Assembly: GCF_003334255.1 (NCBI RefSeq) | Contig: NZ_QOWU01000001.1 | DNA from: Escherichia coli | Lineage (GTDB): Bacteria; Pseudomonadota; Gammaproteobacteria; Enterobacterales; Enterobacteriaceae | Reading direction: 5' to 3' (one strand) | Length of the DNA stretch: 64,000 bases | In this document: piece after piece, positions 22,848 to 23,012 of the stretch | Layout: every line of letters begins with the position of its first letter | How positions within the stretch are numbered: position 1 is the first letter of the stretch | Notes under the pieces: model-generated | Database searches by the model: none | Told to the model about the DNA's origin: nothing | What the model saw: the letters and a program-made list of their open reading frames with translations, nothing else | Position numbers and translations under genes: made by a program

Positions 22848-22894
22848 AGTTATTTCCTTATTCTTAAGCAGGCGAAACAAAATCAAACGTTGAG

Positions 22895-22925
22895 CATAGT
22901 CCTTCCCCTTACGGGAAGGTCAAGC
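22895..22925 (-). promoter_or_regulatory. MerR-type (CueR-like) operator/promoter of cueO
   Basis: Minus strand reads cTTGACCttcccgtaaggggaaggacTATGCT: -35 TTGACC, 19-bp spacer containing the 7-bp inverted repeat ccttccc/gggaagg (22901-22919), then a -10-like element; located 50-80 bp upstream of the cueO start. Confidence 0.6.
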
Positions 22926-23012
22926 CGCAGACACAATTTAATCGACAATAATGGTCGTCGCCTCGCTCGCAGTGTGCTAACGTTTATCTTCTTTAAGCCC
23001 CTGGTAGAAGCA

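Follow-up and report, generated by a model that had tools for sequence, protein, structure and literature searches.

Whether a gene transcribed divergently from a copper-induced neighbour also takes part in the copper response is the question raised by the region lying between cueO and yacC in Escherichia coli. In the stretch of DNA analysed here, which is 64 kb long and is referred to as the window, the initial annotation had recognised on the minus strand a promoter of the type activated by the copper-responsive regulator CueR, namely a TTGACC hexamer, a 19-bp spacer holding a ccttccc/gggaagg dyad and a -10-like element, and had suggested that yacC, which shares the region, could be co-regulated by copper. 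Very probably, the region houses two autonomous promoters arranged back to back, i.e. PcueO, driven by CueR, and PyacC, standing outside CueR control. Copper co-regulation of yacC appears unlikely considering the anatomy of the promoters, their conservation, the loss of cueO in Intestinirhabdus alba and the expression of yacC under Hg and Ag.

The segment from 22848 to 23012 (165 bp) corresponds to the entire cueO-yacC intergenic region, bounded by the cueO ATG at 22847 (minus strand) and the yacC ATG at 23013 (plus strand), within the gene order gcd, cueO, yacC, speE, speD, yacL and acnB found in E. coli. The cueO coding sequence (21297..22847, minus strand), taken from the list of open reading frames and matching the RefSeq cueO annotation at 100%, encodes a multicopper oxidase with a Tat signal, and the yacC coding sequence (23013..23360, plus strand) specifies a PulS/OutS-like protein of 115 amino acids with a signal peptide, as indicated by RefSeq annotation, Pfam PF09691 and NCBIfam NF037975. 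Positions 22830-23030 are 100% identical to positions 137100-136900 of MG1655, K-12 coordinates being obtained as 159930 minus the window coordinate, and a 501-bp query (22700-23200) was matched in 5425 of 5426 complete E. coli genomes. The comparison set comprised 80 sequences, i.e. the window and 79 other Enterobacteriaceae species, from which 71 distinct intergenic sequences were aligned; conservation was expressed as the majority fraction per alignment column, with the four-fold synonymous sites in yacC (mean 0.64) as neutral reference. The divergent cueO-yacC arrangement is kept in 79 of the 80 species.

Some side observations on the locus deserve mention. In E. coli strain 504211 (L001, 202-2553), an IS621 (IS110-like) and an IS3-family element lie just past the cueO 3' end, at the place occupied by gcd in the window. 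Besides, an assembly labelled 'Chryseobacterium sp. 18061' (L070) carries a cueO-yacC-speE locus typical of Enterobacteriaceae, and the protein recorded under 'Vagococcus sp. WN89Y' (P0050) is YacC (~90% identity), both records being probably mislabelled or contaminated. Regarding structured RNAs, a whole-window Rfam scan gave no match at gathering threshold at the cueO-yacC locus, and an E-value scan of 22500-23500 returned two sub-threshold chance matches and nothing else; elsewhere in the window, matches at gathering threshold occur at 36916-37029 (plus strand), 48304-48497, 48901-48970 and 54617-54706 (minus strand), the families concerned, namely tp2, naRNA4 (two copies), STnc40 and PssrA, being all unrelated to the cueO-yacC region.

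Read directly on the minus strand, the cueO promoter is 5'-ggcTTGACCttcccgtaaggggaaggacTATGCTc-3', and every element claimed for it at the outset is present between 22923 and 22893. The -35 hexamer TTGACC (22923..22918, minus strand), which shares 2 nt with the operator arm, does not vary among the 80 sequences (majority fraction 1.00); it is followed by a spacer of exactly 19 nt containing the CueR operator (22917..22899, minus strand), whose length is equally invariant (80/80), and by the -10 hexamer TATGCT (22898..22893, minus strand; majority fraction 0.93). A TA[T/A]GCT hexamer stands exactly 19 nt from the -35 in 78/80 sequences, the remaining two having the single-base variants TATCCT and TAGGCT. 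The operator dyad CCTTCCC/GGGAAGG (22901-22907 and 22913-22919, centre 22910) is a perfect 7-5-7 inverted repeat with arms 100% complementary, of which the -35-proximal half-site CCTTCC is invariant across the 80 sequences compared; the -10-proximal arm reads GGGAGGG in most genera, the perfect form GGGAAGG being that of Escherichia and the Citrobacter freundii group. Transcription of cueO starts at 22887 (minus strand; K-12 137043, plus strand there), as mapped by Cappable-seq with a score of 6.37 (PMC4782308 supplement), that is 6 nt past the -10, which places the dyad centre at about -23, between the -35 and the -10. Closer to the gene, a Shine-Dalgarno sequence AAGGAA (22854..22859, minus strand) lies 6 nt before the ATG, within a TTCC-TTAT block conserved in the 71-sequence alignment.

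Several additional features around the cueO start were considered and set aside. A structured cueO 5' leader was rejected (fold z = 0.24), as was a TTAAGAA/TTCTTAA inverted repeat around the cueO start, the conservation of which is limited to Escherichia; of two AACGTT palindromes, the one at 22886 is Escherichia-specific and the one at 22979 is just part of the conserved yacC -10 region. As a separate observation, a weak second Cappable-seq start occurs at 22928 (minus strand; K-12 137002; score 1.797), just upstream of the cueO -35; it is preceded by a TAAATT -10-like hexamer (22940-22935, minus strand) within a part of the inter-promoter linker that is specific to Escherichia, and a transcript from there would run through the CueR operator.

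This promoter is an already characterised CueR target, so that the sequence analysis re-derives established knowledge. Direct CueR binding has reportedly been observed there, with induction said to be lost in a cueR mutant (Outten 2000 and Yamamoto and Ishihama 2005, as cited in PMC8169799). The dyad contains exactly the CueR core site CCTTCC-N7-GGAAGG, as defined in the literature together with the 19-bp spacer and with copA and cueO as named CueR targets (PMC8169799), and the locus already figured as the 'yacC-yacK divergon' in a comparative study of 2006, which gave it a 19-nt spacer and a putative site for CueR (PMC1526738). The attribution to a CueR-type promoter of the MerR family with a 19-bp spacer is thus borne out by the match to the core site, the mapped start, the 80/80 conservation and the induction by metals along with copA. 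It could be argued that such a short G+C-rich inverted repeat arose by chance, or functions as an RNA hairpin or terminator, the more so as the weak start at 22928 would transcribe through it. The composite motif TTGACCTTCCC-N5-GGGAAGG, however, finds one site in the 64-kb window with 0 mismatches (the second match being the opposite-strand reading of that very site), against a chance expectation of 0.04 per window and with at least 2 matches in 0/100 shuffles. Its position in an exact 19-nt spacer is invariant, it coincides with the published core site, it has no T-run and attracts no terminator-like call, and the main cueO start is downstream of it, which leaves the dyad outside the main cueO mRNA. 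A function other than operator is thus hardly conceivable.

The closest relative of PcueO in the same organism is PcopA, which likewise exhibits a sigma-70 layout with a 19-bp spacer holding CCTTCC-N7-GGAAGG and is switched on by Cu(I)-CueR, which distorts the spacer (PMC8169799). Besides driving different functions, i.e. an efflux ATPase gene for PcopA and a periplasmic oxidase gene for PcueO, the two promoters differ in the 7 central bases of the operator. Across genera, the cueO (cuiD) promoters of Salmonella, Citrobacter, Klebsiella and Enterobacter share the same TTGACC-N19-TA[T/A]GCT layout and the invariant CCTTCC half-site, the dyad being imperfect in most genera as opposed to Escherichia and the Citrobacter freundii group, and Salmonella cueO was previously reported with the CueR cassette (PMC1526738). 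A generic sigma-70 promoter scan of 22600-23500 called neither PcueO nor PyacC, the former being missed because the scan allows only spacers of 16-18 nt and the latter because its hexamers are too weak.

The archetype of the MerR family is the mer operator-promoter of Tn21 and Tn501, a merR/merTPAD divergon with the dyad inside a 19-bp spacer. Both in mer and in soxR/soxS, the operator and the divergent promoter overlap, so that a single bound dimer governs the two directions. The cueO-yacC region resembles mer in having a dyad operator in a 19-bp spacer and a divergent neighbour gene, a palindrome in a spacer of 19-20 bp being the signature of the family (PMC1526738). Unlike mer and soxRS, the operator stands here 79 bp upstream of the yacC start, beyond the yacC core promoter, the mapped starts of yacC and cueO being ~102 bp apart, and unlike mer, the regulator is not the product of the divergent gene, cueR being located elsewhere (K-12 513993-514397). 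A shared-operator divergon of this kind should have an operator overlapping the divergent promoter, a joint response of both sides and a divergent promoter that needs the operator; between cueO and yacC there is no such overlap, no joint response to Hg or Ag, and the yacC promoter block is found whole in a species without the box.

This last point requires a closer look at the yacC side. In the 71-sequence alignment, two conserved islands are separated by a linker. Island 1 comprises the cueO -10, the operator and the -35, and island 2, nearer yacC, reads AATAATAAAG-(A/G)TCGTCGC followed, after ~17 nt, by AGT(A/G)TGCTAACGTT. The linker (22924..22945) is indel-prone and non-conserved, with a majority fraction of 0.32, and all the length variation between the two promoters is confined to it. 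On the plus strand, it is followed by an A/T block, CAATAATGG (AATAATAAAG in most genera), at 22946..22954, i.e. -44 to -36 relative to the yacC start (majority fraction 0.86), which would be UP-element-like for yacC. Next comes TCGTCG (22955..22960, plus strand; majority fraction 0.94), a putative -35 matching the consensus at 3/6 positions and proposed from its spacing, 17 nt upstream of the -10. The latter is an extended -10 (22975..22983, plus strand) with TG at 22975-22976, a C at -13 and TAACGT at 22978-22983; its majority fraction is 1.00, and all 80 sequences carry TGCTAA[C/T][G/T]T, beginning 37-38 nt ahead of the yacC ATG. A conserved alignment block, GGTAGAAG (23003..23010, plus strand), probably acts as the ribosome-binding region. 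A yacC start near 22990 was first predicted from island 2, and a cluster of class I starts was then found by dRNA-seq at 22988..22990 (plus strand; K-12 136942-136940, reverse strand there; PMC4681348 supplement and text), class I designating starts that are TAP-enriched and at a leading edge of transcription, here in cells at mid-exponential phase to which no copper had been added. With its own start mapped without copper and the conserved island 2, yacC therefore has its own promoter active without copper. Of the idea that yacC shares the region with cueO, the divergent arrangement stands and a shared promoter is not supported.

The geometry of the region varies widely across species. Relative to the yacC start, E. 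coli has the centre of its CueR operator at -79, and other species have it anywhere from about -69 to about -125. Counted from the box centre to the yacC -10, 61 sequences have a gap of 55/56 nt, 15 have one of 65-67 nt, and the values 62, 76, 100 (Phytobacter) and 111 nt (Salmonella arizonae) occur once each. The common spacings of 55/56 and 65-67 nt being about one helical turn apart, a face-of-helix effect is formally possible. Helical phasing of the box relative to PyacC was considered as such and set aside: by eye, of ~6 independent indel events, ~3 are in phase within 1 bp, which is indistinguishable from chance. Intestinirhabdus alba (L064, 2700-3010) provides a natural deletion, as cueO, its -35 and the CueR box are lost and AATAATAAAGGTCGTCGC...AGTATGCTAACGTT...GGTAGAAGCAATG are intact together with the ribosome-binding region; an ABC-transporter ATPase-like open reading frame ends there 64 nt before the yacC ATG. 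Since the A/T block is kept where cueO is absent, it serves yacC.

Expression under metals was considered from published datasets, in which copA and cueO are induced together by Hg, Ag and Cu. After 10 and 30 min of HgCl2 (RNA-seq tables), cueO was induced 20.7x and 17.8x and copA 25.0x and 20.4x; in the same samples, the change of yacC was not significant and then -2.0x, and speE decreased -2.1x and then -3.6x. With 6.5 uM AgNO3 (arrays), cueO reached 8.65x and copA 23.6x, and yacC, at 0.15x, cannot be told apart from speE (0.13x), gcd (0.18x) and most genes (0.1-0.3x), the Ag and Hg datasets being global-stress conditions with large general mRNA shifts. With Cu at 2 and 8 mM (RNA-seq), cueO was induced 44x and 26x, and copA 115x at 2 mM. 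At stronger or later doses, the induction of cueO thus remains below that of copA, as seen at 2 mM Cu and 6.5 uM Ag, and at 8.5 uM Ag cueO collapses to 0.80x when copA is still at 18.6x. As for yacC under copper, yacC (b0122) is not among the top-ranked responders listed in the ranked copper RNA-seq table, nor among the genes listed from Yamamoto and Ishihama in a copper RNA-seq preprint (bioRxiv 10.64898/2026.03.12.711415), and the available part of the Reg-Seq supplement holds no yacC data. A literature search for a link between yacC and RpoS gave nothing useful; in proteomics, YacC was found down with an antibiofilm drug and up with gentamicin independently of Cpx, neither of which identifies a regulator. 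As yacC does not track cueO and copA under Hg(II) or Ag(I), the suggested copper co-regulation is not supported.

Two ways in which yacC could nonetheless follow copper have to be weighed against autonomous promoters. In the more direct one, CueR bound at the single operator would drive both cueO and yacC as a copper-responsive divergon, in keeping with the divergence conserved in nearly all species, the listing of the 'yacC-yacK divergon' with its candidate site in 2006 (PMC1526738), the commonest box-to-yacC spacings ~10 bp apart, and the response to phenylmercuric acetate at 10 min, when yacC rose +2.8x with cueO at +5.5x, in a sample where roughly half of the genome changed. Yet MerR-type activators reshape the spacer of the promoter they occupy (PMC8169799), and the operator is at -79 from yacC and at very different distances elsewhere; yacC stays flat or goes down when cueO and copA go up 9-25x under Hg and Ag, its start is active without copper, its promoter survives the loss of the box in I. 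alba, and in the texts consulted, including PMC8169799, the published CueR regulon consists of copA and cueO only. Co-activation by CueR is on these grounds very unlikely.

The other way would be indirect, with PcueO firing perturbing PyacC by competition of polymerases for the A/T block or by negative supercoiling, given the 102 bp between the starts; yacC-speED transcription would then shift modestly with copper, a drop being likelier than a rise. Assuming polymerase footprints from about -55 to +20, the calculated overlap is ~18 bp for most genera, against ~8 bp for E. coli, the conserved A/T block is upstream of both -35 elements, and yacC was at -2.0x after 30 min of Hg when cueO was at +17.8x. 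But speE and many unrelated genes drop equally or more in the same Hg and Ag samples, so that the decrease of yacC is explained by global effects (speE at -2.1x/-3.6x under Hg, bulk genes at 0.1-0.3x under Ag); besides, the change of yacC was not significant after 10 min of Hg despite a 20x induction of cueO, and the A/T block is kept in I. alba where cueO is absent. Such a perturbation is consequently improbable, and a specific form of it, in which the PcueO and yacC(-speED) promoters would be physically coupled via the A/T block, 1-2 helical turns apart in most genera, with PcueO firing modestly modulating yacC-speED, is quite improbable.

The reading that best accounts for the data thus remains that of two autonomous promoters, for which the following functioning is proposed. 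With a good -35 (TTGACC) and -10 (TATGCT) set apart by an over-long 19-bp spacer, PcueO would not allow RNA polymerase to engage both hexamers. Following the mechanism and the CueR dependence of cueO known from the literature, a CueR dimer would sit on the CCTTCC-N7-GGAAGG dyad inside the spacer and, when loaded with Cu(I) or Ag(I), and likewise in cells exposed to Hg(II), would kink and under-twist the spacer, so realigning the hexamers and enabling cueO transcription from 22887. On the other side, PyacC would be a sigma-70-type extended -10 promoter composed of the A/T block, TCGTCG, a 17-nt spacer and TGcTAACGT, with its start at 22988-22990, active without copper and driving yacC and probably, by read-through, speE-speD; the assignment of the yacC hexamers and the UP-like role of the A/T block are inferred, the anatomy of the region, the positions of both starts, their conservation and the lack of co-expression under Hg and Ag being direct observations. 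PyacC would escape CueR because ~79 bp, among them a non-conserved linker, separate the operator from the yacC start further downstream.

Regarding the genes placed under PyacC, a terminator scan found no terminator-like site between yacC and speE, the dRNA-seq table has no start in the stretch from the yacC stop to the speE ATG (PMC4681348), and a strong terminator with a 12-bp stem and a T-run stands right after speD (25147-25174). It follows that yacC-speE-speD probably forms one transcription unit (22988-25174) driven by PyacC, which may itself be the promoter of the speED operon. The speED promoter was reportedly mapped in 1989, ~0.5 kb upstream of speE.

Within this unit, the yacC-speE spacer harbours a hairpin (23385-23408), ATTGACCG-TGCATCCG-CGGTCAAT, in which 4 pairs show compensatory changes, with G.U intermediates, over 31 species. 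Downstream of it come an invariant GTTAGCTATGATGTTGCGCC and an apparent second hairpin at ~23425-23443, just upstream of the speE Shine-Dalgarno sequence, the pairs of which are CGCCC/GGGTG, replaced by CGCTCA/TGAGCG in Enterobacter and CGCTCG/CGAG in Raoultella. The spacer element gave no Rfam match at E<=1 and could be involved in processing, attenuation or translational control of speED. As a side observation, in a subset of Enterobacter (L033, L034, L036, L037, L039, L040, L043 and L044) the first hairpin is replaced by an ACCGC...GCGGT stem and a T-rich run, ~85 nt upstream of speE; by its sequence, this stem would be terminator- or attenuator-like, which suggests a lineage-specific rewiring between yacC and speE.

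The description of YacC as a small secreted protein of unknown function proves fair: it is PulS/OutS-like and is not a GspD pilotin. Like the PulS/OutS (GspS) pilotins, YacC matches Pfam PF09691 (PulS_OutS; i-E 3e-9), and among solved proteins it is related to OutS, PulS and GspS (E-values 2e-9 to 7e-4); it passes NCBIfam NF037975 'YacC family pilotin-like' (196.8 bits for a cut-off of 80) and falls below the GspS equivalog TIGR01004 (38.5 bits for a cut-off of 75). Unlike pilotins, it has no conserved lipobox cysteine and no adjoining secretin gene, and deletion or co-expression of yacC was without effect on GspD in EPEC (Dunstan et al., PMC3542185). The only possible lipobox cysteine is Cys17, in the poor lipobox MAVC of E. 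coli, and it is Ser in 9/12 other aligned sequences and lost in the other three; a signal-peptidase-I-type site, SYA|L, is conserved among close relatives. The lack of conservation of Cys17 points to a protein that is probably soluble in the periplasm rather than a lipoprotein, and the MG1655 label of 'putative lipoprotein' is probably wrong. Two further cysteines, C45 and C100, are invariant in the aligned relatives, which suggests a disulfide. Many automatic gene calls have a YacC of 128 amino acids starting from an in-frame GTG (22974-22976); as this GTG is upstream of the mapped start at 22988-22990, the extension appears miscalled and the 115-residue form real, so that such gene calls are probably wrong. 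With identities across Enterobacteriaceae genera of 88-100% for YacC, 73-98% for CueO and 85-99% for SpeE, YacC is conserved above CueO and about as much as SpeE, and is therefore under strong purifying selection. A protein of 4728 amino acids with 42 'YacC-like' stretches was discarded from the relatives as an Ala/Thr-rich repeat protein with compositional matches.

To what was already established for cueO, this analysis adds a reasoned negative on yacC and a base-resolved map of both promoters. The conserved structured leader before speE may merit a separate study. If it were true, a coupling between the two promoters would link copper stress to polyamine supply or to the periplasmic role of YacC. 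Regarding the copper regulon, yacC should not be annotated as one of its members merely for its divergence from cueO.
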